Origin: a virus
Virus record (IMG/VR): IMGVR_UViG_3300045988_119787
Coordinates: 1-64,000 of that record
Reading direction: 5' to 3' (one strand)
DNA length: 64,000 nucleotides
The notes below the pieces were generated by a model, which saw only the letters and a program-made list of their open reading frames with translations, ran no database searches and was not told where the DNA came from. Made by a program: the position numbers and the translations under genes. Below, piece by piece: positions 3,970 to 26,980 of the stretch; the first letter of the stretch is position 1; every line of letters starts with the position of its first letter.

Positions 3970-4005
3970 CAAATTATAATAAATAACGCTTTAAAATTTT
4001 TATCT

Positions 4006-4990: not shown

Positions 4991-5326
4991 GGTTCGTGCT
5001 TGTTCGTGTCAGACAAACATCAAAATAGCCTAAAATCGAAATGTTAAACTTTACTATGCGCACGTGCGTACCTATTAATGCAAACAGACTTTTGTACCTA
5101 AAATCACACCTTCATCAAAATTTATAATTATCTTTATACTAAAGTTTTGTTTCTCCTTGGGAACAGTTGAGACTAAAATCTTTATTATCAAGCTATTAGC
5201 GTTTTTGACTATTTGGCAGTTTATATTACAAAATAAGGCTTCTTGAAGGGGTTGAGGTAAACGGGAAAGCGGTTTATTGCGCCCCGACTAACAAATTTGT
5301 GGGTTTTGGCGAAAACTCGGTGTAGA

Positions 5327-9037: not shown

Positions 9038-12000
9038 ATGGCTGGAGATAAATTTGACCAACTTTATAACGCCTTGAAAGCTGATGGCGCAGTATCGGGA
9101 ACTAGAGAACATTTCAGACAGTTCGTATATGCGCCGGGCAAGCAGGGCTATCATAACAGAAAGCAGCTCTATGATGCGCTTCATGCTGATGGTGCTGTTT
9201 CCAGTAATTCCTATGAGGAGTTTGCGCAGCGGCTTGGACTCCATGCTGTAAATCCGAAGCCTCAGCAGAAGCCAATAGAGCAGCAGAAGCCAATGACTAC
9301 TTCGCAGAGGGCACAGAAGGTGGCAGCTCAGTATAAGCAGCAGAGGCAGCAGCCTCAGAGACCTCAGCAGCCTAGTACGGCTACTGCTTCTGGTACAGAC
9401 TATATGAAGAACTGGCAGTTGATGCACATGCGCAACTACCAGATGAACCCGATGCAGCAGGCTCAGGCTAGCAATATGCGCACGCGCATGCAAGGAGCAC
9501 AGGAACAGGCTGCGCGTCAGGAGCAGCAGAGAGCTACCCCTATCAGTAGAAGCAGAATAACCTCTACTGCCAAGAACTTCAACGAGACGATGCAGCAGCT
9601 TTCTACTCCTGAAGCTCGCAGGGCTAGAGCCAAGCAGCAGCGAGAGGACGATGCAAGAGCATTCGCCCAGTATGAGGTTGAGGGTAATAATTTTGCCCAG
9701 AATGACGGTAAATATGGCACCATTGCACCAGAGATTGACTCTCTTGTAGCTCCTTCGATGGAGGAGGCTGATAATTTGTCTTGGTCTCAGTATCAGCAGG
9801 CTTTGAAGAATGCTGGTAATGATGCCTATCTGAGAAACAAGGCGTGGAAGGATTTGCAGGACAACAGGATCAAGAACCGTCAGAATGTACTTGCCGACAC
9901 CCTCAGTTCTAAGTTGCAGGAAATATACTCCCAGAAGGGATTGCAGGAGCATATCTTGCAGAGTGCCGAAAAGTTGAATATGGGCGTGGAGGAGTACGTT
10001 GACAAGTATGTTACTCCTCAGATGATGCAGCGTGCCCAGAATATACTGGGTGTTAAGAATATTGAGGAGATTCTGCCTCAGAGTGCCACAGAATATGTGG
10101 TGAGAAGACTCAGCGATTCCATCTTGGGAACCTTGTCTGCCGGACAGGATAAGTCGAGAGAGCAGATTGCCAGAGAGCAGGAGGCGATGGCTATTGCAGA
10201 CGGTTTGGAGGAAATGCCTACCGTTAATGGCTACAAGGCTAACGAAGGTTACAAGTCTGGCATGGGCGCACGTTTCGTTTCTACGGCGGCTAACATGGCG
10301 ATGGACTCCCCTATTCTCGGAATGACAGGCAGCGCATCCAATTTGACCGTGGATCTGGGAAAGCAGGTCCTGATGAAAGGTCTCGCCAAGGCTGGAGTTG
10401 TGAAGATGGGAGCCAAGCTTACTGCACAGCAGTTGGCATTCAAGGCTGCAAACATGACGATGGCACAGAAGATTGCTTCTGGCTTGGTGGATGGAACGGC
10501 GAAGAGTGCGCTCAATCTGGGCGGTTACTCCAGTATCACCGCAGCCCTAGGGCAGGCATCCACCGGTGATGATACTTCATTGTCGGCATTGGGTCAGGCG
10601 GCATTGGGAGGATTCGAGCATGGTGCTACCACTGGTGCGATGTTCGGAGTATCGGGTGCTATCATGGCTCCTTGGGTGTCAAAGTTCGGTATCACTGGCT
10701 TGGAGAAGAGCACAGGCGAGAAATGGCTGCATGGCACACAGAAACTTGGTGCTACCGCCGCAGGTCTCGGCGTTGAGGCTGGGACCATGATGGTTGCCGA
10801 CAATATCACTGGCGATAAGGACATTTCCTTTGGCACATGGCTTGAAGACGTGGTGATGGTGGGCGCATTCAAGGCAGGAGAGCCTAAGAATTACGCTCAT
10901 ATCGGAAATGCGTTGTATAATCTTACTCATAATAGCGGTGGTAATTTCGTGATTGGAAAGAATACCAACGGCTCCCCTATCGCCGTGGATATTCGTCTGA
11001 CTCCTGACGAGAAGAATGAATTGATTTCTTCTGCATCGGGCAAGAATCTGATGGATGCTTTCGTGAAGGTGGACCGTGCATCGAAGACAGCTCCAAGAGA
11101 TTCGAAATACAAAACGGCATACACGGATTTTATGAACGACCCAGACGTTTCTCAGAGCACCAAAGAGAAGGTGAATGCGGCCATGGGACTGTTTAACACG
11201 ACAAGAGGTAAAAGCTACCGCAGCGTAAATGACGTGAAGAACAAACAGATTCTTGAATACACCAAGAACGGAACGCTGCTTACACGTACCTCTTATAAGA
11301 ATGCCGATGAACGCCGTGCTATCCTTTACAAGCAGAAGCTTTATCGTGACAATGACGATATGATGTCGCTGATTGGCTATTCCAAGATGAAGGATATGCA
11401 GCTGACTGATGAGGACGGAAATGTTACCAGTCTGGCACTTGGCTTCCTCCGTAATAACGGCTATGACACAAGCAAGGATGTTACAGACCCGATAAACGCC
11501 CAGCTGATTAATGACTTGCGCAACCCGAAGAGTGCGCTCTATCTTGACTGGGAGAAGTATGTGGACGTTTACGGTTCGTATGGCGATCTTAAAGTAGAAT
11601 CCGCAGACGTTGTTGGTGGTTTTATGGACACCTTGAAGAAGATGATCAACGACAAGGGAAACATGACGGTTGATATTGACAACATCATGCGCAAAGACCC
11701 GATGAAGCGCACCGACCAGGAGAACAAAATCTTCTATTATGTGAAGAAAGCACTCGAAGATGAGCTTTTCCCTAGCTGGAGGCCACACGCAGACCAGTCT
11801 GCCAGCCAAGGTAAGACGGTTGCCGAGGAGCATAGTCTGGGAACGGACGACCCGGATAGCGGCGTGGTAGTTGATGAGTTGCGCAACCTTCGCAATGCCG
11901 AGCAAGCCCTTGATGCAGCGATGGATAGCAACGATGTGTTCAAGCAAACCTTTGAGAAATTGCACCAGCAGGGCTTGACACCGGCACAGATTTACGATGC

Positions 12001-15000
12001 ACTCATTCAGAATGGATTGACCCAAGAAGAGTTAACCCCACTTGCCCAATATATCAATGCGAACGCTAGAGTGCAGGGTATGCAGCAGGCTACTGCTGAT
12101 GTCATAGAGGAAAACGTGAAGAGCTTTATTTCTGATTGGAGCTATCACGGAACATTGAACGGTCAGGCGATGAATGGCGAGCAAGCTTTGTACGTGCAAG
12201 ACAGCAACGGAAGAACACTTCTTGTTGGTTCAGGTGATGTTGCCTTCGACCAGACTACAGGTAGAGCCAAGGAAGGTAGCGGTGATATGCTTGTCTGCTT
12301 CGACCCTAACACCAGGGAAATGGTCTATGTGAAGGCAGATGAGGTTACTCTGTTTCAGAATCAGCCTATCGACCAGTTCGCTGCAGAATATCGTCAGAGA
12401 TTGCAGATGAAGAACTCTGAGCCTTATAATCAGGCGGCACAGGAACAGGCGATGCAGGATGCTGCAAAGCCTCAGCAGGAGCAGGAGGCACCACAAGATA
12501 ATACCACAAAATCGGAAGATAATACCACAAAAGAGGGTGATTTAACAAAAGATGATACCACTTTAACAAAAGTTAATACCACATCGGGCAAAGATAATAC
12601 CACAAATGAGAACTTAGCACCACAAGAGCAGCCTCAACCTAGCAGAAAGTTTGCCGATGGTTCAGATGTTCCTATGGCTACGGACAGCAAGGGAAGACCT
12701 ACACCTGACTATGAGAAAATGACTCCTGAACAGAGTGCAGAGATTCTTACTGAGGACTTCGGGGATAATGCCGAGAAGGTGGTGGACGGACAGATTCAGA
12801 AAGCAGAGAAGGCTTTGAAGGATGCCGAGAAGATGAAGGTGGACTATACCGCCGAACCTAACGACATCATGGAGCAGGAGACTTTGAAGAACCAGACTAT
12901 TGAAGCTGCCAAGAAGCAGTTGGATCACGCTCAGAATATCAAGAAGGCTATGACTGCCAAGAAGGTTGCAGAGACTGTTGGTAAGACAGAACAGACTGAG
13001 GGCGCACATGAAGCTGGTAGCGTGGCTGCACAGAAGTTTGTAAATGCACCTAGGCTTATAGGCAATAAGCGCACAAGAATGCTGCCTGACGGAGAGACCA
13101 AGATTAAGGGACACTATGAGATTGTTCCGGCTGAAAGTCTTACTCCTTCTCACGATGTGAACAATGGTTACAAGAAATCTGAGGGATTCCCTACCGATGC
13201 TGAGGGCAGAACTGTGAATGATCGTGACTATGAACACGACAAGGCTGCTCAGCAGAATACGGACCAGATTGCCAGGAAGTATAACGGTATGGCTATCGAG
13301 CAGGTGCCAGTGGTATCTGACGAGGGTATCGTATATGATGGCAACGGTAGAACGATGGCAGGACAGAAGGCGGCAAAGGAAGGCACAGACGCTGAATACA
13401 TCAACGACCTCTTGGAGAATGCCGAAAACTTCGGCTTCACAAGAGAACAGATTGAACAAAGCGGTATCGAGCATCCACGTCTGGTAATGGTTACGGATGA
13501 GAGATTGCCATACGATGCGGCTACCTTCGCCAAGTTCAACCGAAACGAGAAGAAGACACAGAGCAATACCGAACAGGCGGTAGCCAAGGCTAAGACCTTG
13601 ACTTCTGACGAGGTAGGCGCGATTGTTGCCGAGATTGAGGGAAATGGTTCTCTTGATGCATTCTTTAACAATTCCAAGGCAATAAATGACTTGGTAAAGA
13701 CGTTAGTAGATAAAGGAATCATCGGACAGAACGAGGTGGCACAAATGATGGATAGCCCTGAGCGCCTTTCAGCACAAGGCAGGGAGTACGTGAAGAACCT
13801 TCTTTTGGGTTCAATCTTCAAGCCAGAGACTATCAGAATGCTGGGCATCGACTCTACGGTGAAGAATAAGGCTATCAACGCTATCCGCTCGGTGATGGAC
13901 AACATGAAGCTGGGCGAGTTCTCTCTTCGTGATGAGATTGATCAGGCTATCCAATTGCTCTATGAGGCAAGACGGGGTGGCAACAAGGTTGATACGCTGC
14001 TGAGGACACCATCCATGTTCGGTGAGGATGCAGCTAAGCGTTACTCTTCTATCTCTCAGATGATGGCTTTGGCCCTAGAAGGTAAGGTATCTGATTTCAG
14101 AGATTTGCTTGACGAGTACAACCGTATTGCTGCAGCAAGAAATACTGGCGAGGGCGATGTATTCGGCGAAGCACCTACCAAACCAGAGTTGATAAAAGAA
14201 TTTATGGACTTTAAAAAATGGCAAGATTATGGAACAGGACATTCAGAAAATGAAAGAGGCAATGATGTTTCAGGCATTGAAGAACCTCAACAAGAAGCAT
14301 CAGGAGGAAATGAACCAGCAGAAGCAGAGCGACCAAGAGTAGAAGAACCAGAAGTAGGTTCTCTCCCACTCCTTCCAAAGGAAGAGAACCCAGACCCTCA
14401 GTTTAACCCGATTGAGGCAGCTGCAGCAGAGTTCAAGAAGGAGCATCCTTTAACCGAGGAAGAGATTATGAAGGCAGACGTGGACGATTTATCCAAGGAT
14501 ATGGCGCTTGACTATCAGAACGGAGAAGTGACAGACGATTTGCACCGTGCTATCTACGAAAGCATCTATGCTAAACGCAAGGGATTGAAGGCTGAACCAA
14601 AGGTTGAGACTCCTAAATCTGAACCATCAGCTGACCCAATGGAAGCTTTCAAGAATGCTGCAGAAGGGTTCGAGAAGGAGAAGAAGGGTAAAGCAGAACA
14701 GCCAAAGAAGCCTCAGCAGACTGCTGACGATGCAGCAGTAGCGGCTTCTAACAAGAAGGTTAATGACCTTTGGGATATGCTCAAGAATGCCGGCAAGGAT
14801 GAAATGTCTGCTTCGTTTGTTGGTCTTAACTCTAGACAGCTGGAAGTATTGCCTAAGCTGGTGAGCGCCATGGCAGAGAATGCTTATCTGAGAATCAAGA
14901 GAGGTATGCACAATCTTGAAGACGTGGTGAAGGAAATGCGCAAGGAGTTTGCTCCTGCTTCCAAGATTTTCAAGAAGGAAGACGTGGATGCTATCTATGA

Positions 15001-18000
15001 GCAGATGATGAATATCCGCTATCGTGATGGTGAACAGCGCATGAGCTTGAAGGAGTGGGCTGACTACTACGAGAAGACTTCACCTAAGCATCAGGAAAAT
15101 CTGGTGGGTGACTCCAAGAGTGCCGAGGAAAGAAAGATGGCTGAGAAGAAGTTTATTGATGTCGTGAATCTACAGTTGGGCTTCAAACATAAGTTTAACG
15201 GTATTGTTGAGCTGAGAAAGATAGCTGAGAGACTCGGCTTGAAGGATATTAAGGACACAGACCTTCAGGAGCTTGCTGAAACTGCCATTGTTAAGCGTGC
15301 AAGAGGTATCGCTTCTTCTGAATCAACCAATAATGCCGAGAAGTTCAAACGCATCAAGACACTCTATGAGAATCAGCCGAGCCTCAACCAGCGTGATTCT
15401 GAGCGAGTGATGAAGCAGCAGTACTCTACCCCTGCCCCTTATGCTTTCCTTGCGGATATGTATGTGAAGGGTAACGGTAAGGTGATTGAGAGTGCTCTGG
15501 AGCCAAGTGCCGGCAACGGTATGCTTACCATCGGTCTGCCAAAGGATAAAGTGCATGTGAACGATATTGACGATACGAGATTGCTGAATCTTAACAGACA
15601 GGGCTTCGGAAAGGTGACCAGTCAGGACGGAACTCAGCCATTCAACGTAAAGCCTGTTGATATTGTGATTACCAACCCACCATTCGGTAGTGCTACCCCT
15701 AAGGAGTATGACGGCTATAAGATTTCTTCCTTGGAAGGACAGATGGCTATCAATGCCCTGGAGAGCATGAAGGACGATGGTCGTGCTGCCATTATTATCG
15801 GCGGCAAGACGGAATACGCCAAGAACGGAAGTCTGAATCCGAAAGATAAGGCTTTCCTTGGTTATCTCTATAGCCACTATAATGTGGAGGACGTGATTAA
15901 TGTGGATGGCGGTCTCTATGCAAAGCAGGGAACCAGCTACCCTACACGTATTATATTAATAAACGGAAGACGCTTGGACGAGAATGCCTTTCCACCAGTA
16001 AAGGATAAGGCTAGAGCGGAAGCCGTGAAAGATTATGACGAACTTTATAAACGAATTGAAGATGATATACTACGAGGTGAACGGATGGATTCTTCCATCG
16101 GAGGAGAAACAAGAAGTGCTCAACCAGAACTTGATAAACAAGGCGCTGCTGGTACTCCTAAAGAGAGAGTACGAGCAGGAGAACGAGGAGGAAGCAAACC
16201 AGATGGTGAGCGAGAGTCTGACCTATTTGACTCCACTTCCGTATCAGGAACCCATGATGACTTGGAGAATCAACGAGGAACCGAGCCAAGAGAAGATGGA
16301 GGACTTTCTGGTGGAGATACTGGAACAGACAGAACAGGGACAGAGCCTTCTCAGAGCGAAGGAGCAACCGCTGGAACCAATGAACAGCGAGGAGCTGGAT
16401 CAGGAGGAGCTGGACGGAATGACGCTCAGCCAAGTACTGATGAACCTGCCAGCGCCGGGAGCGGAAGCGGACCACGGGGACAATTACAGCGAGTGGACAA
16501 ATCCGTACGTGGACTAAGCACAGAGAAAGTTACCTATACCCCAAAGAGTGGAAACCCTTTCACTCTGAAAGCCGTGATGCCTGCCGATCAGCAGGAAGCG
16601 GTAAACAAGAACCTTGAAAAGCTGGGCGATGCCGACCAGTTCCTGGTTGATGAACTTGGCTATAATGACAAGGACGATTTGTATTCTCATCTTGCAGCAG
16701 AGCAAGTTGACTCTGTAGCTCTTGCCTTGCAGCAGGCAAAGAAGGGCAACGCCTTTATTATCGGAGATATGACTGGTATCGGTAAGGGAAGACAGGCTGC
16801 TTCACTTATCAGATATGCCAAGAAGCAGGGGCAGGTTCCTGTATATTTCACTAAGACCGCTGGCTTGCTGAGCGATGTTTACCGTGACTTAGTGGATATT
16901 GGAAGCCCAGAGCTGAGACCATTTGTATTCGGTAGTGCCAAGGAAGCTGCCATTACCGACTCAGACGGAAACGTAGTATTCTCCTTGCCATCTAAGAGTG
17001 AGGTGAAGCGAGTGCTTGACTACATCGAAAAGAACGGCAAGCTGCCAGAGGAATACGACTACGTATTGACTACCTACAGTCAGGTAAGCAATGGTGTATA
17101 TGAGTTTGATGAGGACGGCAACCGCAAGGAGAGAAAGCTTGCAAAGGGTAAATCATTCGGTGCTGCTGCTCTGAGCGGACAGAAAAGACGTGATGCTATT
17201 GAAAAACTGATGGGTAACGCCTATCTTATCCTTGACGAAAGCCACACGGCTGGTGGAAATAGCGGTCAGGGTAACTATTTCCAACACATTATTCAGAAGG
17301 CAAAGAACGTTACCTTCTTCTCTGCTACCTTTGCCAAGCGACCAGACAATATGCCTATCTACGCTTTGCGTACTGCCATGAACGAGGGCGGTATGAAATC
17401 ATCCGATTTGATTGATGCGGTGAAGCGTGGTGGTGCAACCTTGCAGGAGATTATGAGCCAGACCTTGACACAATGCGGTCAGATGATTCGCCGTGAGCGA
17501 GATATGACTGGCGTAACCATCGACTGGAAGGCTATTGATGATCCTGAGCGAGTTAAGGAGCAACGAGAACAGTATGATAGTATCATCGGATTGTTTAATG
17601 ATATTATCAATTTCCAGAAGAAATATGTTTCAAGTTACGTTGATGAACGTAATATTGAATTGGCAGACATCCAATCTACGATGGATATCAAGAAGGGCAC
17701 AGAATCTTTAGGTATCAAGAATCAGCCTTTTGCCAGCAAGGCATTCAATACCGTTCAGCAGGTACTTCTCTCCTTGAAAGCGAAGTCTGCTGCAGAACGT
17801 GCAATCGACTATTTGAAGCAGGGGATGAAGCCTGTGATTGCATTGAACAACACCAATGAATCGCAGACAGGAAACCTTGCACTTGGTGAGGAAATGGACG
17901 CACCAGACTTGGGCACATCTTTGAAGAAGGGTCTGGAGGGTACACTTCGCTACACTCAGAAGGATGCCAAGGACAATAGCGAAAGCGGTTATTTCAAGCT

Positions 18001-21000
18001 TGAAGACTTGGGCGAAGAGGCTGTTAAGGCTTATCACGAACTGGAAAAGAAGATTGAGCAGACAAGTACCGGTCTTTCACTCTCCCCTATAGATGTTATC
18101 AAGAACGAGCTGCAGAAGGCAGGTTATAAGGTTGGCGAGCTGACAGGAAGACAGACCGAGTTTGTTTATAACGACAACGGAACAGTTACCAAGGTAAAGC
18201 GTGCTGATACCGACAAGAAGAAACTCGCACGCGACTTTAACGATGGTAAGATTGATGCGCTTATCCTCAACAAGAGTGCTGCAACCGGTATTTCCCTTCA
18301 TGCTTCGAGCAAGTATAAGGACCAGAAGAAGCGTGTGATGATCGTGGCGCAGCAGCAGCTTGACGTGAATGACGAGGTTCAGATGCGTGGACGTATCGAC
18401 CGAACCGGTCAGGTGGCTAGAGGTGCATACGAGTATGTGGTTTCCCTTATCCCTGCCGAGCAGCGACTGCTGATGATGTTTAAGGCTAAGTTGAAGTCAC
18501 TTGATGCCAACACGACTTCTTCTCAGAAGAGTAAGTTCAACGAAATGGAAGTTGCCGATATTACCAATAAATATGGTGACAAGGTGGTTAAGGAATACAT
18601 GGCAGAGCATCTTGACCTTTATGCACGCATGGCTGATCCATTCGGATGGGAAAAGACTTACGGTGATGATTTGAGTAGAATCAACCCACAAAACCTTGTT
18701 GTCAGTGGTGGAGGTGTCGGTGATGGTGAAGCTGGTGCCGATGCAAGCAAGTTGCTTGGACGTATGGCTTTGCTGAGAGTAAACGAGCAGGAGAAGATGT
18801 TGCAGGAGATTGGCGAGCTTTACGCCAACGAGATTCAGCGACTCAACGAAATGGGCGAGAACGATTTGGAGATTACCGAGCTGCCACTGAAGGCTAAGAC
18901 TATCCACAAGGAAGTATGGAAGCAGGGCGCTGAGCCGGGCGGCGATAACGCCTTTGCCGACAACACCTATATAGAAAAGGTGAACATGGCTATCTTGAAG
19001 AAACCGATGAAGGCTTCTGAGGTGAAAGCTTCGCAGGAAGGCTTGACTGGCGGCAAGACTTGGGATGAATACAAAACCGAAAAGAAGACTGCCGTGAAGG
19101 AATACTTCGGCCAGAAGATTGCGAACGAGACTCAGAGGTATGAGGAGCGTGCGGTGAAGGCTGCAACCAAGGCAAAAGAGAAGTATATCAAGGATGGAAA
19201 GAAGGGTCAGGAGAAATCGGGCATGACCGATGAGCAGATAGAAAAGAATGCTGAATATCAGTACGAGACTATCTACAAGCAGGAGAAGGATAAGCTGGAT
19301 GATGTAGTGAAGAACTTGAAGGAGAAGGCAGAAATGTTTGACCGTGTTCTTGACACCTTCGACACCAACCAGACTTTCGTTCTGCCTACGGACATGAACA
19401 ATCCTAACGAGTTGAGCGGATTCGGCAACAGCTACGGTAGACTGATTGACATCAAGATTACTGATAACTTCTCGCCTAACGCCTCTTCTGTTTCCTTTGC
19501 AACCTTGGATGGCAGAAGAAAGATTACCTTCCCTATCGCTGGCAAGGTTGGTGCAGGTGAAAACAAGGCAGACATTATCGGCGCCATCGACAACATGACT
19601 AAGCAGGCAATCGGTATGGGAGACAGCCATCTCAGAGTATTGAACCAAAACTTTGATAACTGGGATAGACTGACTAGCAATGAGAGCCGCAAGAATGGCT
19701 ATATCGTGACCGGTAATCTGATGCAGGCTTTGGTTGACAGTAAAGATCAGGGCTTGGGCGGTCAGTTGGTGAAATATACTACTGATACTGGCGAGGTGAA
19801 GACTGGTATCTTGATGCCAGACAGATTCGACCCTAAGGGCTTGACAACGGATGCGCCTATCAACAGCGTGACAGAGAAGTTTGAGCTTTCATCATGGCAT
19901 GGTGGTATTGACGAGGTTACTTCATCGGATGGTGAAGTAAAGGTGAAGCGCATAGACAACAATCGTGGCTACTTCTACGAGCTTCGTGTACCGAAGAGCA
20001 AGGCGAAGGGCGGCAAGTACTTCATGGATGAAGATTTGCTGAAACTGGTTAATGGCAATAACTTCGAGACCAGAGGCAACAATATGCTTGCTGAGTTTAA
20101 GCCAGAGCAGTTGAAGCCAGTACTGGACCGCCTGTCTAAAATGGGCGTGAAGGTGCAGGAGGAGCGCAAAACTTCTGAGGATGAAGGCACCCACTTCCGT
20201 GAGGACCGAGGCTTGCAGTATTCTAAAACAGATACAAAAGATGTTAAGAAAGGTAGAATCATTCCCGAAGATGTAGATAAAAATGTATCTTCGCAGATTG
20301 AAAAGAAGTTTGATTCTACCATTAAGGACATCGAAGAGCATACAGAAGACAGAGATAAATCTTTGTTTGCTGATAATCTTGAATCTGCTCTGGATGAGTT
20401 TTCTGATCTTGGTAGAAGCGTTATTGAATATTACAAGAATGATTATGAACGAAAAGTTGAAAAGTTATCAGGACAGCATACCGGAGGACATCTTGGTGGT
20501 AAGAATGACGGTAAGGGAAATAAAGGCTCTTATCTACTGCAATATTATAAGACCGTTCTCGCCGTCGCTGACAGAGAACTTGCCTATAGAGACGCTAGAG
20601 CAAAGAATCTCAGAGAGACTTGGGGATTGCAGCCAGGAGGAGCGTTCACACTTGGAGCCGTTGAACGAATTTTTAAAGAAACAAATAGAGATAAAGGAAA
20701 GGCTGAACTCTTCCAAAGAGTTCTCGATATAAACAAGCGTCTTGGTGTAAACATCAAGGTAAGTGCCGAGAGTCCGAAGAAGAGATCTGGAGAAGCAGAC
20801 ACCAATAGAAACATTGATTTGTATATTGATGGTCTGACAAAAACAATGGCTCCAGACTACGCTGCCCCTACTATTATGCTGCATGAAATGATTCATGAGG
20901 TAACAATGGGTGCTATCAATCTCGTTAAGAAAGGTAAGGCTGAGGGCATACTGACCCCTAAGCAGATAGAGGGCGTAAAGACTATCCTCAAAATCTATGA

Positions 21001-24000
21001 CAAGGTAAAGGACGATAAGGAACGCTTCAAAGAAGAGCCTTACGGTCTGACTGATGCTTACGAGTTGACTGCTCAGATGGCAGATTCTAGACAGAGAAAG
21101 GCGATGGACTTGTCTATCTGGGATAGAGTTATGAATGCAGCACACGAATTTGCAAGAAGGGGCGATCGCTCTATCTTGCAGAGAGTGAAGGATGCCATCA
21201 AGAAACTGTTTGAGGTTTCTGACAAGGATAAGATGGATAAGGCTATCAACGACATCATGGATGATTTCAATGAAACCATTGATGATATTTCCATGAATGA
21301 GATTGAACAGGATGGATTCGCCTACAAGGTTACAGACAAGGATGAGCTGGACCGCCTCAACAAGGAAAAGACTTTCAGAATGTATAGCGGAATGCAGGAG
21401 GTGGACGGAAAGTTGTACTCCCCTATGGCTGCGATCATTGACGGAAAGCGTACCGATGCTACCGAGATTGGCGCTTGGATGGGCGCAGACGAGCGACCTG
21501 ACCTTGTGAAGAACGGAAAGTTTACACTTGTGAAGACTGATAAGAATAAGGGTGTTGGCGAGGGTGATGTGCCTGCTGCCTACAATCCTTATATGCACAC
21601 CTCCACTTCTATGATGAACGACCAGTTTACCGGTGCTTACGCTAGAGGCAACATCAAGGTTGTGGAATGGGAGATTCCTGAAAGCGAGAAGACCAGTGGC
21701 TATCGTGCTGAGGGTGCAAAGGATGCTGTGGGTCTTGTACCTTGGCATTCGGGTTCGGTTAATAGTTTGCTGCCGAAGGACAGACAGAGACAGGTGATGT
21801 TGTCACGCTGGAGAAAGGCGGTGAGAGTGGTTCCTGATTCAGAGGTGGCTGAGAGTATCGCAGAACAGTTGAAGGGTACAGGCTTGGCTATCCCTTGGAA
21901 TGTGGTTACTCCTAATCAGGTTAGGGAGTTGGCTAAGCTGGGCGTACCTATCACTACCGTTGAATCGGGAAGACAGGCTCCTGAAACCAAGGAGAAGTTC
22001 TTGCAGCAGATGGCTGAACTGGAACAGGAGTTCCCTCAAGCTAAGTTCGTTAACGTGAAAATGTCAAAGGATGCCTTCAAGGTATGGGGCAAGGACGGAG
22101 GCACCAAGTTCCGCACGGACCATGGAGAAAGTAGCTACCCTACTTCATCGGTTGAGAGCCATGTGGAGAAGGTGGCTCAGAAGACTGGCGCAAAGGTGAA
22201 CATGGTTTCATCAGTTGATGAAATCACCAACAAGGCTGCTAAGGCTGCTATTGAGGAAGGTAGAAAGATTACTGGCTGGTATGACGAGAAGACTGGCGAG
22301 GTACATCTTTATATGCCTAATATCCATGACAGATATACTGCCGAGAAGACTATCTGGCATGAGGTGGTTGGTCACAAGGGAATGAGAGAGTTGTTTGGTG
22401 AAGACCGATTCAACCAGTTCCTTCGTGATGTTTGGTACGACTTGGATAAGCCTGAGAATGCCGAATTGAAGAAGCTGGTGGATGAGGAGAGAAGATACAA
22501 TCCTCTGAATATCTATGATGCCATAGAGGAAGGTATCGCCCGACTCGCCGAGGATGGCAAGGGTGAACCGGGCTTCTGGAATGGTATCAAAAACAAGGTA
22601 TCTGATTTCCTTCATGAAATCGGTTATCGTATTGCTCCTAATACTAAAGATGTGAAGTATCTGCTCTGGTTGAGCAAGAACTTGCAGAAAAATCCGAATG
22701 ACCCTTATTGGAAGCTGAGAGCCGAGGCGGTGAAATTCCGTCTCGACCATGATCGTGTGCCTGCTGTCGTGGCGCATGATGGTATGTTCTACGGAAATGA
22801 CGGTAAGGTCCGCAGTATGGAGAGCATGACCAAGAGCGAATGGAACGAGGCTACAGACGGACAGATTCACTTCCGTACTACCCCATCTGCCGGCACAGCA
22901 CTTGACAGATACCACCGTTCGCTGGATGAGCACGGCTATATGTTCACCGAGAGCTATATGGATAATATGCTTTCGTTGAAGAAGTTGATGAATGCGATTG
23001 TGCCAGATAAGAAGATTGAGGATATTGCTTCTTCGGAGAATCCTTATATACTGCAGAACACCATGCAGGGTGCGATGAGTGATGCGGCTCAGATGTTTGA
23101 GCGCAACGTAATGAAGCCGCTTGACAAGGCGATGGCTGGTGTGCTGGATGCCTTTGATGGCAAGAAGGATGATGAGAAGATTAGAAACTTCAATCTCTAC
23201 ATGATTACCAAGCATGGTTTGGAGCGAAACAGAGTGTTCTTTGTTCGTGACTTCCTTAGACAGATGAGAATGTACGAGAAGAAGAAGCAGGATGCAGACA
23301 TCTTGGAGAACCGCTGGAGTAACGAGAAGGAACGTCTGGATAACGAACTGAATGCTGGTAACATCGACCTGAAGGAGTACTACAGACAGATAGACGAGTT
23401 TATCAACAACGAAATCGACCCAGACTATAAGGCTGGCGAACACGACTATTCGGGTATTCACGCTATACAAGAGGTAGCAAAGTCTTCTGACCCATACGAT
23501 GATGCAGAGGCTATCGCTAGCGTGATGGATTCGGAAGCTAAGATGGAGAGCATCAAGAAGGGAGCTGTGAAGGACTATTGGGATAAGGTGAAGGCTGCAA
23601 CCCAGTATTCGATTGACAGCGACTACAAGAATGGTATCATCAGCAAGGAGTTGCACGGTCATGTATCTAATATGTTCAACTGGTATGTGCCTTTGAGAAA
23701 GTATGATGAGGCTACTGCAGAAGATACTTATGGCTACATTACTGAGCAGGGAGACCCGAAGAGTTACATCGGAAGCACCATCATGAGAGCAAGAGGACAC
23801 AAATATCTGAGTGAGACAAATGTGCTGGCGCAGATTGGTGCGATGGGTAACAGAGCTATCAAGAACGGCGGTATGAATGCTATCCGTCAGGCTTTCGCAA
23901 GATTCGCGCGAAATAATTCGGGCAATAATCTGATTACAGAAACGAGTGTATGGTATGAGAAGGACCCAATGACCGGTATTGTTTATGAGCGCTATCCTGA

Positions 24001-26107
24001 TATTCCTGAGGACGCTACACCAGACGAAATCAACCAGATAGTTGCAGACTTCAATACAGACATGAAGGCAAAGGCTGCACAGGGCTTGGCATCGAAGGTT
24101 TACCGCAGGGGCAGTATCGGCTATAAGTTCCAAAGAGCTGAGAATAAATCACAGCATATCGTAGACGTGAAGATTGCCGGCAAGACTCATTCTTTTGTTA
24201 TCAACGGAAATCCCAGAGCAGCGCAGGCATTGAATGGGTTGCTGGAGAACTCTAGCGCCAAGGGATTCATGAAACCTTTGAGCACTATTTCTAGAATGAT
24301 GGCACAGCTCTGTACTTCATACAACCCTGAGTTCGTGATGAGAAACGCCTTCCGTGATGCTGAGTTTGCTTCGAGCAACGTTACATCGAAGGAAGGTGCA
24401 AGATACGGGGCACTCTGGGCTAAGTACTACGCACAGCTGGGTCTGTATAAGGGCGCATCGAATATCAGCTTGAAGGATTTCAGCGGTTCTACGGGTTTGG
24501 GATTGTTCGCAAAGTATCGTAACGGCACACTTGATATTTCTGACAAGGTTCAGAGATACTTCAAGGAGTTCATGGAGAACGGCGGTGAGACTGGTTGGGT
24601 TCAGATCAAGAACATGAAGGATTGGACCAAGGAATACAAGAAAGACGTGAAGGACGAAAGAAGCAAGCTGAACAAGGGCGGTGAACTGGTACGTGATTTC
24701 TTCTTCGGTAACTTGGAGAACGTGAATGAGGTGGCAGAGAATATCGCCCGATTCACTACTTACTGTACGAGTCGTGATTATGGACGTTCCGTTATCCGCT
24801 CTGTCTATGATGCCAAGGAAGTATCTACCAACTTCAACCGTCATGGTAGCGGTGATGCCGTCAAGAGTTTCAAGAACGGTGAAATGACTGGAACCAAGGC
24901 TGCAAGAAGATGGGCATACGGATTTACTTCCGGCTATCTCAGACACTGCTCTATGTTCTTCAACGCTGGTATTCAGAGTACGAACCTTCTTGCGAAGAAC
25001 TTGAAGAATCATCCTGTAGGAACTTCCATCAACATGCTTGCCATTCCTTTTGCACTCGGTGCGCTGGCTGCACTTGGAAACAATGTGCTGATTGCGAGTG
25101 AGGACGAAAAGGACAGAAAGGGAGTGAAGGACCCATACGGTGAACTGCCTGACTACGTGAGAAGGAACAATCTCTGTATCTACAAGGGAGGCGGTCAGTT
25201 TATCACGATTCCGCTTGCCATCGAGTTAAGAGCTTTCTATGGCTTGGGTGACTTGGCTGCAGGCTTGACCTTCTCGCCAAACGTGAGCGGACAGAAGAAT
25301 CCTTACTTAGATGCCGTGGGCTGTATGTCGCAGCTGGTTCCTGTGATGGACTATCTCGGTAACTCTTCGGCAGGCAAAGAACCGATTAACGAGACCATCA
25401 AGGCTATCTCTCCTTCTGCCCTATCTCCATTCGTTGAATGGGAGTTAAATACCGACTGGAAGGGTGCGCCTATTGAGAGACGTGGCGACTGGAACGAAAA
25501 TTCCCCTGCTTGGCAGAGAGCCTACAAGGGTATTCCTGACGGTTATATGGCTGTAAACAAATGGGTGAATGCCCAGACAAACGATGTAGCCAAGGGTAAC
25601 GAGGATATGCTGGGTAATAGTTTCCTGGATATGGTAACGAACCCTAGTATGCTGAATCATTACATCGGCGGTCTTGGCGGTGGTGCTGCTACCTTTACTG
25701 AGCGTGCTATTGGTGTTGTGAAGCATGGAAATGATACGGAAACCAAGGATATTCCTTTCCTTCGCTCCCTACTCTATACGCCTAGCGAGCAAAGCAGCTT
25801 GCAGAGAACCAAGAGCAAGTGGTATAACTACAAGGACGAAATGGAAAAGACCATGGCAAATGTGGACCGTCTGAAATCCAAGAACGTTCCGATTGATAAG
25901 AGAATCACGAATATTGGGGAATATTATCACTTCCAAAACTCCAAGGAAGCTGCCAAGGTGAGAGTAATCGAGCTGGCAGAGAAACAGATGAAGCGCTGGA
26001 AGAAGATGAGGGATAAGGCTAGCGATACAGAAAGCATCAACTTCGCTAATCAGAATATTGATAGGATCATGATGGATGCGGTGGACGAACTGGATAGACT
26101 GGAATAA
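9038..26107 (+). CDS. Giant polyvalent protein (5,689 aa): ParB-like + N6-adenine MTase + strawberry-notch/DarB-type SF2 helicase + two zincin-like sites + large uncharacterised C-terminal region
   Basis: A single uninterrupted 17,070-nt ORF. Motifs are listed as separate features below. A terminator follows directly. Confidence 0.9.
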   Translation: MAGDKFDQLYNALKADGAVSGTREHFRQFVYAPGKQGYHNRKQLYDALHADGAVSSNSYEEFAQRLGLHAVNPKPQQKPIEQQKPMTTSQRAQKVAAQYKQQRQQPQRPQQPSTATASGTDYMKNWQLMHMRNYQMNPMQQAQASNMRTRMQGAQEQAARQEQQRATPISRSRITSTAKNFNETMQQLSTPEARRARAKQQREDDARAFAQYEVEGNNFAQNDGKYGTIAPEIDSLVAPSMEEADNLSWSQYQQALKNAGNDAYLRNKAWKDLQDNRIKNRQNVLADTLSSKLQEIYSQKGLQEHILQSAEKLNMGVEEYVDKYVTPQMMQRAQNILGVKNIEEILPQSATEYVVRRLSDSILGTLSAGQDKSREQIAREQEAMAIADGLEEMPTVNGYKANEGYKSGMGARFVSTAANMAMDSPILGMTGSASNLTVDLGKQVLMKGLAKAGVVKMGAKLTAQQLAFKAANMTMAQKIASGLVDGTAKSALNLGGYSSITAALGQASTGDDTSLSALGQAALGGFEHGATTGAMFGVSGAIMAPWVSKFGITGLEKSTGEKWLHGTQKLGATAAGLGVEAGTMMVADNITGDKDISFGTWLEDVVMVGAFKAGEPKNYAHIGNALYNLTHNSGGNFVIGKNTNGSPIAVDIRLTPDEKNELISSASGKNLMDAFVKVDRASKTAPRDSKYKTAYTDFMNDPDVSQSTKEKVNAAMGLFNTTRGKSYRSVNDVKNKQILEYTKNGTLLTRTSYKNADERRAILYKQKLYRDNDDMMSLIGYSKMKDMQLTDEDGNVTSLALGFLRNNGYDTSKDVTDPINAQLINDLRNPKSALYLDWEKYVDVYGSYGDLKVESADVVGGFMDTLKKMINDKGNMTVDIDNIMRKDPMKRTDQENKIFYYVKKALEDELFPSWRPHADQSASQGKTVAEEHSLGTDDPDSGVVVDELRNLRNAEQALDAAMDSNDVFKQTFEKLHQQGLTPAQIYDALIQNGLTQEELTPLAQYINANARVQGMQQATADVIEENVKSFISDWSYHGTLNGQAMNGEQALYVQDSNGRTLLVGSGDVAFDQTTGRAKEGSGDMLVCFDPNTREMVYVKADEVTLFQNQPIDQFAAEYRQRLQMKNSEPYNQAAQEQAMQDAAKPQQEQEAPQDNTTKSEDNTTKEGDLTKDDTTLTKVNTTSGKDNTTNENLAPQEQPQPSRKFADGSDVPMATDSKGRPTPDYEKMTPEQSAEILTEDFGDNAEKVVDGQIQKAEKALKDAEKMKVDYTAEPNDIMEQETLKNQTIEAAKKQLDHAQNIKKAMTAKKVAETVGKTEQTEGAHEAGSVAAQKFVNAPRLIGNKRTRMLPDGETKIKGHYEIVPAESLTPSHDVNNGYKKSEGFPTDAEGRTVNDRDYEHDKAAQQNTDQIARKYNGMAIEQVPVVSDEGIVYDGNGRTMAGQKAAKEGTDAEYINDLLENAENFGFTREQIEQSGIEHPRLVMVTDERLPYDAATFAKFNRNEKKTQSNTEQAVAKAKTLTSDEVGAIVAEIEGNGSLDAFFNNSKAINDLVKTLVDKGIIGQNEVAQMMDSPERLSAQGREYVKNLLLGSIFKPETIRMLGIDSTVKNKAINAIRSVMDNMKLGEFSLRDEIDQAIQLLYEARRGGNKVDTLLRTPSMFGEDAAKRYSSISQMMALALEGKVSDFRDLLDEYNRIAAARNTGEGDVFGEAPTKPELIKEFMDFKKWQDYGTGHSENERGNDVSGIEEPQQEASGGNEPAEAERPRVEEPEVGSLPLLPKEENPDPQFNPIEAAAAEFKKEHPLTEEEIMKADVDDLSKDMALDYQNGEVTDDLHRAIYESIYAKRKGLKAEPKVETPKSEPSADPMEAFKNAAEGFEKEKKGKAEQPKKPQQTADDAAVAASNKKVNDLWDMLKNAGKDEMSASFVGLNSRQLEVLPKLVSAMAENAYLRIKRGMHNLEDVVKEMRKEFAPASKIFKKEDVDAIYEQMMNIRYRDGEQRMSLKEWADYYEKTSPKHQENLVGDSKSAEERKMAEKKFIDVVNLQLGFKHKFNGIVELRKIAERLGLKDIKDTDLQELAETAIVKRARGIASSESTNNAEKFKRIKTLYENQPSLNQRDSERVMKQQYSTPAPYAFLADMYVKGNGKVIESALEPSAGNGMLTIGLPKDKVHVNDIDDTRLLNLNRQGFGKVTSQDGTQPFNVKPVDIVITNPPFGSATPKEYDGYKISSLEGQMAINALESMKDDGRAAIIIGGKTEYAKNGSLNPKDKAFLGYLYSHYNVEDVINVDGGLYAKQGTSYPTRIILINGRRLDENAFPPVKDKARAEAVKDYDELYKRIEDDILRGERMDSSIGGETRSAQPELDKQGAAGTPKERVRAGERGGSKPDGERESDLFDSTSVSGTHDDLENQRGTEPREDGGLSGGDTGTDRTGTEPSQSEGATAGTNEQRGAGSGGAGRNDAQPSTDEPASAGSGSGPRGQLQRVDKSVRGLSTEKVTYTPKSGNPFTLKAVMPADQQEAVNKNLEKLGDADQFLVDELGYNDKDDLYSHLAAEQVDSVALALQQAKKGNAFIIGDMTGIGKGRQAASLIRYAKKQGQVPVYFTKTAGLLSDVYRDLVDIGSPELRPFVFGSAKEAAITDSDGNVVFSLPSKSEVKRVLDYIEKNGKLPEEYDYVLTTYSQVSNGVYEFDEDGNRKERKLAKGKSFGAAALSGQKRRDAIEKLMGNAYLILDESHTAGGNSGQGNYFQHIIQKAKNVTFFSATFAKRPDNMPIYALRTAMNEGGMKSSDLIDAVKRGGATLQEIMSQTLTQCGQMIRRERDMTGVTIDWKAIDDPERVKEQREQYDSIIGLFNDIINFQKKYVSSYVDERNIELADIQSTMDIKKGTESLGIKNQPFASKAFNTVQQVLLSLKAKSAAERAIDYLKQGMKPVIALNNTNESQTGNLALGEEMDAPDLGTSLKKGLEGTLRYTQKDAKDNSESGYFKLEDLGEEAVKAYHELEKKIEQTSTGLSLSPIDVIKNELQKAGYKVGELTGRQTEFVYNDNGTVTKVKRADTDKKKLARDFNDGKIDALILNKSAATGISLHASSKYKDQKKRVMIVAQQQLDVNDEVQMRGRIDRTGQVARGAYEYVVSLIPAEQRLLMMFKAKLKSLDANTTSSQKSKFNEMEVADITNKYGDKVVKEYMAEHLDLYARMADPFGWEKTYGDDLSRINPQNLVVSGGGVGDGEAGADASKLLGRMALLRVNEQEKMLQEIGELYANEIQRLNEMGENDLEITELPLKAKTIHKEVWKQGAEPGGDNAFADNTYIEKVNMAILKKPMKASEVKASQEGLTGGKTWDEYKTEKKTAVKEYFGQKIANETQRYEERAVKAATKAKEKYIKDGKKGQEKSGMTDEQIEKNAEYQYETIYKQEKDKLDDVVKNLKEKAEMFDRVLDTFDTNQTFVLPTDMNNPNELSGFGNSYGRLIDIKITDNFSPNASSVSFATLDGRRKITFPIAGKVGAGENKADIIGAIDNMTKQAIGMGDSHLRVLNQNFDNWDRLTSNESRKNGYIVTGNLMQALVDSKDQGLGGQLVKYTTDTGEVKTGILMPDRFDPKGLTTDAPINSVTEKFELSSWHGGIDEVTSSDGEVKVKRIDNNRGYFYELRVPKSKAKGGKYFMDEDLLKLVNGNNFETRGNNMLAEFKPEQLKPVLDRLSKMGVKVQEERKTSEDEGTHFREDRGLQYSKTDTKDVKKGRIIPEDVDKNVSSQIEKKFDSTIKDIEEHTEDRDKSLFADNLESALDEFSDLGRSVIEYYKNDYERKVEKLSGQHTGGHLGGKNDGKGNKGSYLLQYYKTVLAVADRELAYRDARAKNLRETWGLQPGGAFTLGAVERIFKETNRDKGKAELFQRVLDINKRLGVNIKVSAESPKKRSGEADTNRNIDLYIDGLTKTMAPDYAAPTIMLHEMIHEVTMGAINLVKKGKAEGILTPKQIEGVKTILKIYDKVKDDKERFKEEPYGLTDAYELTAQMADSRQRKAMDLSIWDRVMNAAHEFARRGDRSILQRVKDAIKKLFEVSDKDKMDKAINDIMDDFNETIDDISMNEIEQDGFAYKVTDKDELDRLNKEKTFRMYSGMQEVDGKLYSPMAAIIDGKRTDATEIGAWMGADERPDLVKNGKFTLVKTDKNKGVGEGDVPAAYNPYMHTSTSMMNDQFTGAYARGNIKVVEWEIPESEKTSGYRAEGAKDAVGLVPWHSGSVNSLLPKDRQRQVMLSRWRKAVRVVPDSEVAESIAEQLKGTGLAIPWNVVTPNQVRELAKLGVPITTVESGRQAPETKEKFLQQMAELEQEFPQAKFVNVKMSKDAFKVWGKDGGTKFRTDHGESSYPTSSVESHVEKVAQKTGAKVNMVSSVDEITNKAAKAAIEEGRKITGWYDEKTGEVHLYMPNIHDRYTAEKTIWHEVVGHKGMRELFGEDRFNQFLRDVWYDLDKPENAELKKLVDEERRYNPLNIYDAIEEGIARLAEDGKGEPGFWNGIKNKVSDFLHEIGYRIAPNTKDVKYLLWLSKNLQKNPNDPYWKLRAEAVKFRLDHDRVPAVVAHDGMFYGNDGKVRSMESMTKSEWNEATDGQIHFRTTPSAGTALDRYHRSLDEHGYMFTESYMDNMLSLKKLMNAIVPDKKIEDIASSENPYILQNTMQGAMSDAAQMFERNVMKPLDKAMAGVLDAFDGKKDDEKIRNFNLYMITKHGLERNRVFFVRDFLRQMRMYEKKKQDADILENRWSNEKERLDNELNAGNIDLKEYYRQIDEFINNEIDPDYKAGEHDYSGIHAIQEVAKSSDPYDDAEAIASVMDSEAKMESIKKGAVKDYWDKVKAATQYSIDSDYKNGIISKELHGHVSNMFNWYVPLRKYDEATAEDTYGYITEQGDPKSYIGSTIMRARGHKYLSETNVLAQIGAMGNRAIKNGGMNAIRQAFARFARNNSGNNLITETSVWYEKDPMTGIVYERYPDIPEDATPDEINQIVADFNTDMKAKAAQGLASKVYRRGSIGYKFQRAENKSQHIVDVKIAGKTHSFVINGNPRAAQALNGLLENSSAKGFMKPLSTISRMMAQLCTSYNPEFVMRNAFRDAEFASSNVTSKEGARYGALWAKYYAQLGLYKGASNISLKDFSGSTGLGLFAKYRNGTLDISDKVQRYFKEFMENGGETGWVQIKNMKDWTKEYKKDVKDERSKLNKGGELVRDFFFGNLENVNEVAENIARFTTYCTSRDYGRSVIRSVYDAKEVSTNFNRHGSGDAVKSFKNGEMTGTKAARRWAYGFTSGYLRHCSMFFNAGIQSTNLLAKNLKNHPVGTSINMLAIPFALGALAALGNNVLIASEDEKDRKGVKDPYGELPDYVRRNNLCIYKGGGQFITIPLAIELRAFYGLGDLAAGLTFSPNVSGQKNPYLDAVGCMSQLVPVMDYLGNSSAGKEPINETIKAISPSALSPFVEWELNTDWKGAPIERRGDWNENSPAWQRAYKGIPDGYMAVNKWVNAQTNDVAKGNEDMLGNSFLDMVTNPSMLNHYIGGLGGGAATFTERAIGVVKHGNDTETKDIPFLRSLLYTPSEQSSLQRTKSKWYNYKDEMEKTMANVDRLKSKNVPIDKRITNIGEYYHFQNSKEAAKVRVIELAEKQMKRWKKMRDKASDTESINFANQNIDRIMMDAVDELDRLE
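13112..13354 (+). other. ParB/sulfiredoxin-like module within the giant ORF
   Basis: HYEIVPAESLTPSHD ... VVSDEGIVYDGNGRTMAG resembles the ParB N-terminal-domain pattern, with the DGNGRT box at 13337-13354. Confidence 0.5.
15500..15685 (+). other. N6-adenine DNA methyltransferase core motifs within the giant ORF
   Basis: Motif I LEPSAGNG (15500-15520) and motif IV NPPF (15674-15685), 58 aa apart as in gamma-class enzymes such as M.TaqI. Confidence 0.8.
16763..18412 (+). other. SF2 helicase (strawberry-notch-like) core within the giant ORF
   Basis: GDMTGIGKGRQ (16763-16795), LILDESH (DESH at 17234-17245), FFSATF, LILNKSAATGISLH, QMRGRIDRTGQ (18380-18412). Confidence 0.8.
20882..20899 (+). other. 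HExxH zincin motif (HEMIHE) within the giant ORF
   Basis: Context APTIMLHEMIHEVTMGAIN. Confidence 0.55.
22358..22375 (+). other. HExxGH zincin-like motif (HEVVGH) within the giant ORF
   Basis: Context AEKTIWHEVVGHKGMRELFG. The spacing is that of M49/DPP-III-type sites, not canonical HExxH. Confidence 0.4.
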
Positions 26108-26566: not shown

Positions 26567-26980
26567 TTACAAAATGTCTTCCCAAGGAATGCCAATACCA
26601 TTGAACGATGTATCTGCATAGAAGCGGTTGAAGATGAAACCGTCCTGCTGATCCTCATCATCTACGTAGTCTTTGATGAACTGGGCCATTTGCTTTTCCT
26701 CCGTGATAGACGAACCGTAAAAATCAGCCAGGCACATGTGTGCGATGTAAACCGCATCGTAGCCCACATTATTCTCCAGCACGATATTGTTCTTCTTCAA
26801 GATGTCCTCAATATCATCCTTGCTCATCATGCGGATAGGCTTACCGTTCTTCCGCATCTGCTTAACTGCCCACTCACACATCTTCTTATTGAAGTGCCAG
26901 CCGTTGTATCTCAGGTAAGCCTTCATTTCCTCTGGCTGGTAATCGTAGGCGTTCAAAGATTGTCTGTATTTTCTTTCCAT
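26567..26980 (-). CDS. hypothetical protein (start moved to MERKYRQ)
   Basis: ORF track 26567..27031; 3-nt gap to the downstream ORF. Confidence 0.55.
   Translation of the reverse strand: MERKYRQSLNAYDYQPEEMKAYLRYNGWHFNKKMCEWAVKQMRKNGKPIRMMSKDDIEDILKKNNIVLENNVGYDAVYIAHMCLADFYGSSITEEKQMAQFIKDYVDDEDQQDGFIFNRFYADTSFNGIGIPWEDIL

Follow-up and report, generated by a model that had tools for sequence, protein, structure and literature searches.

A methylase–helicase dyad has been described in polyvalent proteins, with DarB of phage P1 as its archetype (Iyer, Burroughs, Anantharaman and Aravind 2017, PMC5512222). As far as the sections of that survey on these proteins go, the ATPase of the dyad is Strawberry-notch-like "in a few instances", the DdrB-ParB and LPD38 domains are restricted to phage-type polyvalent proteins, RadC is typical of conjugative-element ones, and P1 DarB, as cited there, protects DNA in cis against type I restriction. 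We analyzed such a dyad in the IMG/VR virus record IMGVR_UViG_3300045988_119787, positions 1 to 64,000 of which (64,000 nucleotides (nt), one strand) form the window. The dyad consists of a methyltransferase (MTase) and a superfamily 2 (SF2) ATPase of the Strawberry-notch (Sno) type, a subfamily of the SWI2/SNF2 clade, joined by a polar spacer within one giant open reading frame (ORF). We are fairly confident of the overall reading that this is the dyad of a giant polyvalent protein, that its spacer is dual-coding, and that the +1 frame of the spacer encodes an embedded protein, here called X, translated by internal initiation.

The giant protein combines several unrelated effector domains in one ORF in a prophage context. 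It shares with phage-type polyvalent proteins the DdrB-ParB domain, the methylase–helicase dyad and LPD38, so that the dyad itself is a member of an already described type. LPD36, which PMC5512222 describes upstream of the MTase, had no Pfam match here, though a helical domain was modelled at that place. P1 DarB has the same order of an N-terminal EcoKI/TaqI-like N6-adenine MTase (TP motif, EPSAGxG, NxPFG) followed by an SF2 ATPase in the same polypeptide, and darB adjoins the portal gene, as does the gene for gp3 of the temperate Bacteroides phage BS-TP4, the closest cultured relative. However, P1 DarB, an internal protein of the virion, stands alone with 2,255 aa, whereas the window dyad is embedded in a protein of 5,689 aa, and BLASTP detected only motif-level similarity between the two. 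The P1 ATPase matched the Pfam families SNF2-rel_dom, Helicase_C and ResIII and no Sno family, while that of the window matched AAA_34 and Helicase_C_4. The original prediction that P1 DarB has the same pairing is thus correct for the homologous MTase and not for the helicase; judged by these matches, "DarB-like" holds for the dyad and not for the ATPase subfamily.

A search of 5.8 billion proteins found 414 dyad relatives. Among them were Bacteroidota "strawberry notch family" proteins of ~1,550–1,950 aa, many with RadC/JAB, in which the MTase (44–51% identity) and the Sno ATPase (~40%) stand in the same order; unlike the window protein, they have a non-polar spacer of 21–41 aa or an inserted folded domain of 213–339 aa. 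The distance between MTase and helicase fell into three classes: 21–41 aa, non-polar (about two thirds of 118 sequences); 112–168 aa, at least 79% polar, in giant phage-type proteins, with a few non-polar inserts in the same size range; and 213–339 aa, with a folded domain inserted.

No overlapping reading frame in polyvalent proteins is described in the corresponding sections of PMC5512222. Nothing relevant on overlapping genes in polyvalent proteins or Bacteroides phages was found in the literature searched. Embedded genes on the same strand are a known phenomenon, of which X is an instance with unusual features. In the Rz/Rz1 pair of phage lambda, a complete gene is embedded in the +1 register of another on the same strand; both products are thought to be made, and both frames code for constrained, functionally linked proteins. 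In contrast, the host frame over the window overlap appears unconstrained except for staying open, and the embedded gene sits precisely at the junction of two enzyme domains in a giant protein and is found as a free-standing gene elsewhere. The arrangement is unusual in all these respects: in its position, in a host frame reduced to a sequence-free tether, in conservation down to ~47–52% MTase identity, and in independent capture of the embedded gene as a stand-alone one. The P1 record (L002) contains at 26577–26975 iddB, an ORF antisense inside ddrB and so a further nested ORF in a gene of the Dar operon or polyvalent type, as yet as an annotation only.

Among 75 close relatives, the MTase and helicase were the best-conserved parts of the giant protein, and the spacer formed a dip in conservation between them. 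In the giant frame, the spacer peptide consists to ~80% of G/S/E/D/R/P/T/Q, with 8–9% hydrophobic residues. The original prediction had taken this stretch for a ~140-aa disordered linker; the polar, G/S/E/D/R-rich composition was confirmed, but selection was found to act on the +1 frame in a manner that is not linker-like. Diversity at codon positions 1, 2 and 3 of the giant frame was 0.202, 0.106 and 0.079 in the spacer, versus 0.040, 0.029 and 0.214 in the MTase and 0.046, 0.025 and 0.264 in the helicase. The most variable position of the spacer is the third codon position of the +1 frame, with the order 3 > 1 > 2 in that frame. Synonymous divergence (dS) from the window in the giant frame was 0.045 in the spacer, ~0.31 in the MTase, and ~0.39 in the helicase, i.e., about 7-fold lower in the spacer than in its flanks. 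For 56 unique, ungapped spacers of 450 nt, the Nei–Gojobori ratio of nonsynonymous to synonymous divergence (dN/dS) was 3.09 for the giant, 0.133 for the +1, and 1.32 for the +2 frame; such estimates are biased in overlapping regions, which counts against the dual-coding reading, and the contrast here exceeds 20-fold. The value for the +1 frame is as low as those of the flanking enzymes in their own frame (0.14 for the MTase and 0.05 for the helicase).

All 95 loci in which the spacer could be located had a +1 frame without stops along essentially the full length of this spacer; they included lineages in which the MTase was only 52–64% identical, namely BS-TP4 and prophages assigned to Muribaculaceae, Porphyromonadaceae, and Prevotella. 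In two further lineages with 47–51% MTase identity, a +1 ORF of 117 and 133 aa (L105 and L106, respectively) was also found over the polar spacer. Zero to two stops were observed in the +1 frame, against 2–10 expected from codon shuffling; of 12 representatives, eight had a probability of no stops below 0.001, and the other four one of at most 0.065. The giant frame also contained no stops over the spacer, against 7–12 expected when X was resampled synonymously, and not one of 3,000 trials was stop-free. Since stops are absent beyond chance in each frame, both readings are selected to stay open. An intron, an intein and translational bypass were ruled out for the spacer because the giant frame is kept open non-randomly.

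In a scan of the whole 17-kb gene, the spacer was the sole extended stretch in which codon position 3 was the least variable. A short polar stretch at 14198–14317 (giant aa 1721–1760) had position 1 and 3 variabilities of 0.153 and 0.131, respectively, and a stop-free +1 frame; it is too short to judge.

Together, the substitution patterns and the open frames show the spacer to be dual-coding, at the level of selection on its sequence. The composition of the tether, rich in G/R/S/P/T/A/D/E, results from reading the E/Q/L/M-rich +1 sequence one base earlier: GAR codons of the +1 frame become xGA (Gly or Arg), and CAR or CTG codons become xCA or xCT (Ser, Pro, Thr, or Ala). The giant frame would be translated straight through, with the MTase and helicase in one polypeptide on a flexible polar tether whose sequence is probably unconstrained apart from staying stop-free. 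This statistically strong case also cautions against taking every low-complexity "disordered" segment with dN/dS above 1 for a fast-evolving linker, since an overlapping gene can cast such a shadow.

The X protein of the window is acidic, with an isoelectric point (pI) of ~4.1. Its orthologues have 116–182 aa, a pI of 4.1–5.2 and 27–38% hydrophobic residues, with 16–39 Asp+Glu versus 8–16 Lys+Arg. The AlphaFold (AF2) model of X, built on 14 sequences with 56–83% identity to the window protein, had a mean predicted local distance difference test score (pLDDT) of 85 and a predicted template modelling score (pTM) of 0.80. Residues 1–134 were ordered (a beta-hairpin and helices) and the last 17 were disordered. 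The +1 frame would code for an independent, conserved, folded, and acidic protein of ~130–150 aa. The nested protein of locus L078 (giant aa ~2518–2700) contains about five tandem copies of a 7-aa (21-nt) unit, EE[TM]YRNQ, which lengthen the spacer to 181 aa; both frames are preserved there because the insertion is a multiple of three.

Free-standing copies of X were found on long contigs as two types, P0196 (9 contigs) and P0199 (at least 24 contigs), always downstream of a gene pair encoding proteins of 1,231–1,235 aa and 667 aa (L098:537-10399; L101-L104:824-8393). The neighbor of 1,231–1,235 aa matched the defence protein DdmD (PADLOC, E = 2e-20). Other genes nearby varied: NYN/OST-HTH, AbiEii, and, in one variant, a type IV restriction endonuclease (REase)/PbeA-like helicase and a TraG coupling protein. 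The setting looks like a Bacteroidales defence island or the cargo of a conjugative element. These loci matched the window over spacer-sized DNA only (74.5% nt identity over 518 nt, from 78 nt upstream of the ATG), and no match to other parts of the giant protein was found in them. The equivalent of the giant frame had four stops, while the X frame was open, 68% identical and started at the same Met. Compared with the window, the X frame had a dN/dS of 0.33 and the equivalent of the giant frame one of 3.6. Upstream of the free-standing X, remnants of the C-terminal end of the MTase (…KRIEDGIL…) suggest that a copy of the giant gene was its source. With its end at about residue 130, the free-standing ORF matches the folded core of the AlphaFold model. 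These contigs show that X, predicted as an embedded gene, can exist as an autonomous one. Gene callers called the X ORF in 111 protein clusters, mostly on contigs below 1 kb; gene callers do not allow one gene inside another and overlook such cases except on fragmented contigs.

Table 1. Coordinates of the giant gene, its domains and the embedded gene in the window (aa numbering of the giant protein, except for the length of X)
Feature	Position	Strand	Details
Giant polyvalent-protein gene	9038..26107	+	Single ORF, 5,689 aa
DdrB-like ParB domain, aa 1354-1481	13097..13480	+	Pfam PF18763 (ddrB-ParB), E = 2.9e-10, above the curated cut-off
N-terminal helical region and predicted gamma-class N6-adenine MTase, aa 2040-2340	15155..16057	+	Motifs, profile, AF2/Foldseek
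Dual-coding segment, read in the giant frame as a polar spacer of 150 aa (aa 2341-2490)	16058..16507	+	Joins MTase to helicase
Nested gene X, +1 frame, 151 aa	16062..16517	+	Stop TAA 16515-16517; longest ORF form from ATG 16035
Pre-helicase segment and Strawberry-notch-type SF2 ATPase	16508..18877	+	Pfam, SF2 motifs
Variable cassette of the giant protein, aa ~3750-4350	20285..22090	+	HEMIHE at aa 3949; no Pfam family
LPD38 domain, aa 5365-5575	25130..25762	+	Pfam PF18857, E = 3e-24

All the motifs named in the original prediction (LEPSAGNG, NPPF, GDMTGIGKGRQ, DESH, SAT, and QMRGRIDRTGQ) were found at the positions claimed for them and in one frame, and its assignment of a gamma-class MTase and of a Strawberry-notch helicase core with a full SF2 motif set was borne out. 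The extent given for the pair, 15400–18500, contains the core; the helicase module, however, reaches ~nt 18877, and the whole is an internal part of the 5,689-aa ORF.

Motif I of the MTase, LEPSAGNG, starts at aa 2154 (nt 15497–15520; EPSAGNG from aa 2155), and motif IV, NPPF, at aa 2213 (nt 15674–15685), with the spacing of the gamma class. The TP motif QQYSTPAP (aa 2127–2134) and motif II, VNDID, were also present. QQYSTPxP, EPSAGNG, VN[DE]ID, and NPPFG were invariant in an alignment of 18 diverse family members (A1). Pfam gave only sub-threshold matches on the MTase, and phmmer with the whole region found no match among PDB sequences; the family profile matched HsdM (7eew, E = 2e-4) and METTL5 in the same sequence set. 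Aligned by hhalign with aa 1–400 of P1 DarB, A1 gave a probability of 95.6% and E = 1.2e-8 over 121 columns. The AF2 model of the MTase had a pLDDT of 88.4, with a helical domain modelled upstream, and its best Foldseek matches were 2okc (StySJI HsdM, E = 2e-10), EcoKI HsdM, M.BseCI, CamA, and M.TaqI. By its motifs, its profile and a model with a Rossmann-like class I fold closest to HsdM/TaqI-type enzymes, the MTase belongs to the gamma class of N6-adenine enzymes and is homologous to its counterpart in P1 DarB.

A target-recognition domain was absent: the MTase ends ~127 aa past NPPF (window 15686–16057), and in the short-spacer relatives only 21–41 aa separate the end of the catalytic domain from the pre-helicase segment. 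In the subset of window ORFs that was scanned with Pfam, none was HsdS-like. The missing domain bears on specificity and not on membership of the catalytic domain in the MTase class. It suggests that the predicted methylation is of low specificity or guided by the helicase; because there is no target-recognition domain, methylation probably proceeds with low sequence specificity during translocation.

Both Sno families of Pfam were found above their curated thresholds: AAA_34 (PF13872), for the N-terminal P-loop domain, at aa 2551–2847 (E = 8.9e-15, 54.8 bits versus a cut-off of 27) and Helicase_C_4 (PF13871), for the C-terminal domain, at aa 3030–3280 (E = 2.5e-25, 90.2 bits versus 30.5). The SF2 catalytic motifs I, II, III, and VI were complete, with GDMTGIGKGRQ at aa 2576 (nt 16763), DESH at aa 2733 (nt 17234), SAT at aa 2762 (nt 17321), and QMRGRIDRTGQ at aa 3115 (nt 18380). 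The helicase module was the best-conserved part of the giant protein (92–99% identity among the 75 relatives), and database relatives are named "strawberry notch family protein".

The region would represent the methylase–helicase core of a giant polyvalent protein encoded by a temperate phage of Segatella/Prevotella. Judged by analogy to P1 DarB, this protein is probably delivered with incoming phage DNA or acts on it; the Sno-type ATPase would translocate on double-stranded DNA, and the HsdM/TaqI-like MTase would methylate adenines, blunting restriction. A DarB-like anti-restriction role of the dyad is a reasonable reading on this analogy: P1 DarB, which acts in cis, is the only experimentally studied protein with the MTase–helicase arrangement (PMC5512222, in the sections concerned), and the dyad is the best-conserved part of a protein otherwise built of conflict-type modules. 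Alternatively, the dyad could serve in self/non-self marking, in replication or packaging, or as an offensive helicase–methylase against competing elements. The lack of a target-recognition domain is in line with such roles, homologous dyads are widespread in the Bacteroidota proteins of ~1,550–1,950 aa, and PMC5512222 itself, where it deals with the dyad, suggests, as an alternative to protection, that the dyad may tell invasive DNA from that of the host. We regard a role of this kind as possible, though the less probable one. The dyad is a useful, tractable example in an abundant human-gut phage lineage with BS-TP4 as a cultured relative.

The start ATG of X was kept in 15 of 15 representative loci, within the motif K-M-[IT]-[YF]-Y. 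In 13 of them it lay at codon 1 or 2 of the spacer, and in the other two within seven codons; the stop ranged from 8 codons ahead of the pre-helicase segment to 2 codons past its start. Predicted folding energy from -30 to +30 around the ATG was -0.5 to -4.2 kcal/mol, versus gene-wide means of -7 to -14, which places this AT-rich site in the least structured 0–6% of the windows of the gene in nine of nine clades. Unstructured, AT-rich starts are expected for initiation sites in Bacteroidota, which rely little on Shine–Dalgarno pairing.

Phages commonly use frameshifting to make two products, and a programmed change to the +1 frame where the MTase ends would yield a product of ~2,490 aa with X as an alternative C-terminal domain, beside the full-length protein. 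Both frames are indeed maintained, and in the window and several clades the 11 codons ahead of the Met can be read in the +1 frame without a stop. However, in 6 of the 15 representatives a +1 stop lies only 1–4 codons upstream of the ATG, leaving almost no space for a shift site, so independent initiation is favored. The ATG is kept in all clades at an initiation-like unstructured site, the autonomous gene starts at the same Met, and no slippery motif was evident by eye just upstream of the ATG, where no systematic scan was made. Frameshifting is therefore an unlikely explanation. X would most likely be expressed from within the giant mRNA by internal initiation at the conserved AUG, at the very start of the spacer.

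It is very improbable that the spacer is a plain, intrinsically disordered G/S/E/D/R-rich linker whose +1 ORF is a by-product of a T-poor second codon position. It is true that fewer +1 stops are to be expected from so polar a composition: when the window sequence alone was resampled synonymously, the probability of none reached up to 0.16. The spacer length is also roughly conserved (120–181 aa). Such a linker would, however, account neither for the reduced synonymous divergence and the diversity order 1 > 2 > 3 in the giant frame nor for the low +1 dN/dS, the confident AF2 fold of the +1 product, and a free-standing copy that keeps only this frame open. The +1 products were also far better conserved across clades than the giant-frame peptides, with BLASTP scores of 157 versus 33 bits between the window and L006 and 103 versus 33 bits between L013 and L015; between L015 and L009 (74 bits, E = 2e-21) and between L008 and L012 (E = 1e-11) the +1 products matched, while the giant-frame peptides gave nothing significant.

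A composition-matched control elsewhere in the gene failed the same tests. This second +1 ORF, the next-longest of the gene, at 20283..20732 (149 aa), was rejected as a nested gene, as it is interrupted by stops in 15 of 17 relatives and shows no frame-specific constraint (dN/dS of 0.57 in the +1 frame versus 0.39 in the giant frame); it was treated as a chance ORF and a negative control.

It is likewise very improbable that the +1 conservation reflects an RNA or DNA element in place of a protein, be it a structured RNA, a site for packaging or regulation, or an insertion resembling an intron: the nucleotides just upstream of the ATG (GAACTTTATAAACGA) are highly conserved even between distant clades, but the periodicity of variation follows the +1 frame, dN/dS is low in one frame only, both frames avoid stops, the free-standing copy is a complete ORF, the +1 product has a confident predicted fold, and an intron would not require an open giant frame.

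Several results weigh against the reading of the spacer as the gene of an expressed and functional X. The evidence for its expression by internal initiation is sequence-based: the Bacteroidota -7 promoter motif TAnnTTTG was not found within 400 nt upstream of X in any of nine clades, and internal initiation on the very long giant mRNA is a working inference drawn from this lack of a promoter box. Of the database "proteins" that match X, most were called on contig fragments shorter than 1 kb and do not count as independent evidence. The two free-standing types, P0196 and P0199, are too alike (dN 0.018, dS 0.020) to measure selection within the free-standing lineage. Searches with X gave no lead to its function, which makes any assignment a guess: Pfam returned only noise on seven orthologues, PADLOC no real match, and Foldseek against PDB and BFVD no match (best E ~1.5, template modelling (TM) score < 0.25), while the X profile recovered only the same family and fragments from 1.84 billion representative proteins. 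As for the giant protein, its packaging into the virion and the anti-restriction activity of the dyad are both suggested by analogy only.

Nested and free-standing copies of X both adjoin SF2 helicase-type conflict proteins, and X is strongly acidic; for these reasons, X might tentatively be taken for an anti-defence factor or for an acidic partner or inhibitor of SF2 helicase-type proteins. Like Ocr and ArdA, it is small, strongly acidic, and mobile-element-borne; the likeness is compositional only, and no sequence, profile, or fold similarity of X to known DNA mimics was found in Pfam, PADLOC, PDB, and BFVD. On balance, we are inclined to regard X as an unrecognized family without known fold relatives, encoded out of frame in MTase–Sno spacers across Bacteroidota phages, where its host overlap serves as a sequence-free tether; it may be a new anti-defence or helicase-modulating factor, sufficiently mobile to be captured as a stand-alone gene beside DdmD-like systems, and other "disordered linkers" of giant phage proteins may likewise conceal embedded genes that annotation now throws away. 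X is a concrete candidate for a factor of this kind; with it, very common gut phages and Bacteroidales defence islands gain a protein family that had not been annotated.

A homologous giant ORF was unbroken, at 5,083–6,793 aa, in every related locus that holds the whole gene, so the ORF can be considered real and maintained. Inside the close group its length varied from 5,083 to 6,087 aa, and the variable cassette (Table 1), carried by only 48–73% of the 75 close relatives, looks like a swappable effector cassette. Four families were found by Pfam in the giant protein: ddrB-ParB (dN/dS = 0.033), AAA_34, Helicase_C_4, and LPD38. A relaxed Pfam search (E ≤ 5) over the remainder revealed no extra domains, including MPTase, LPD36, and ART, and NCBIfam gave nothing useful on the giant protein. 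Two candidate zincin-type motifs, HEMIH (aa 3949) and HEVVGH (aa 4441), were present as possible traces of an autoprocessing MPTase, and none of the peptidase families of Pfam was hit, even at a threshold of E ≤ 5.

The window represents the genome of a phage or prophage, taken here for a prophage of Segatella copri, with a tyrosine integrase (289–1425), a P22-like portal protein (41107–43125), a terminase-like protein, tail-fibre-like proteins, and a RecT/metallo-beta-lactamase (MBL)-fold recombination module. MTase–helicase relatives with 82–97% identity were found on 219 IMG/VR contigs of roughly 50–80 kb, and close ones were also present on Segatella copri assemblies. The BS-TP4 protein gp3 (5,391 aa, annotated as "hypothetical protein") shares 44.6% identity over the region, and its gene immediately precedes that of the portal protein; it is not discussed in the BS-TP4 paper. 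In one distant lineage (L105:1-12936), the polyvalent protein is divided into three adjoining genes (4,396, 2,311 and 1,428 aa), and in another (L106:4922-12038), the dyad is a stand-alone protein of 1,744 aa flanked by ART-PolyVal genes. Four assemblies with this Bacteroidota phage gene (L004, L008, L011, and L017) are labelled as Bacilli, Staphylococcus, Saccharibacteria, or Ruminiclostridium, which are probably metagenome binning errors. One of the tail-fibre-like proteins of the window (31549–34821, minus strand, 1,090 aa) has a C-terminal CotH kinase domain (Pfam, E = 9e-15).

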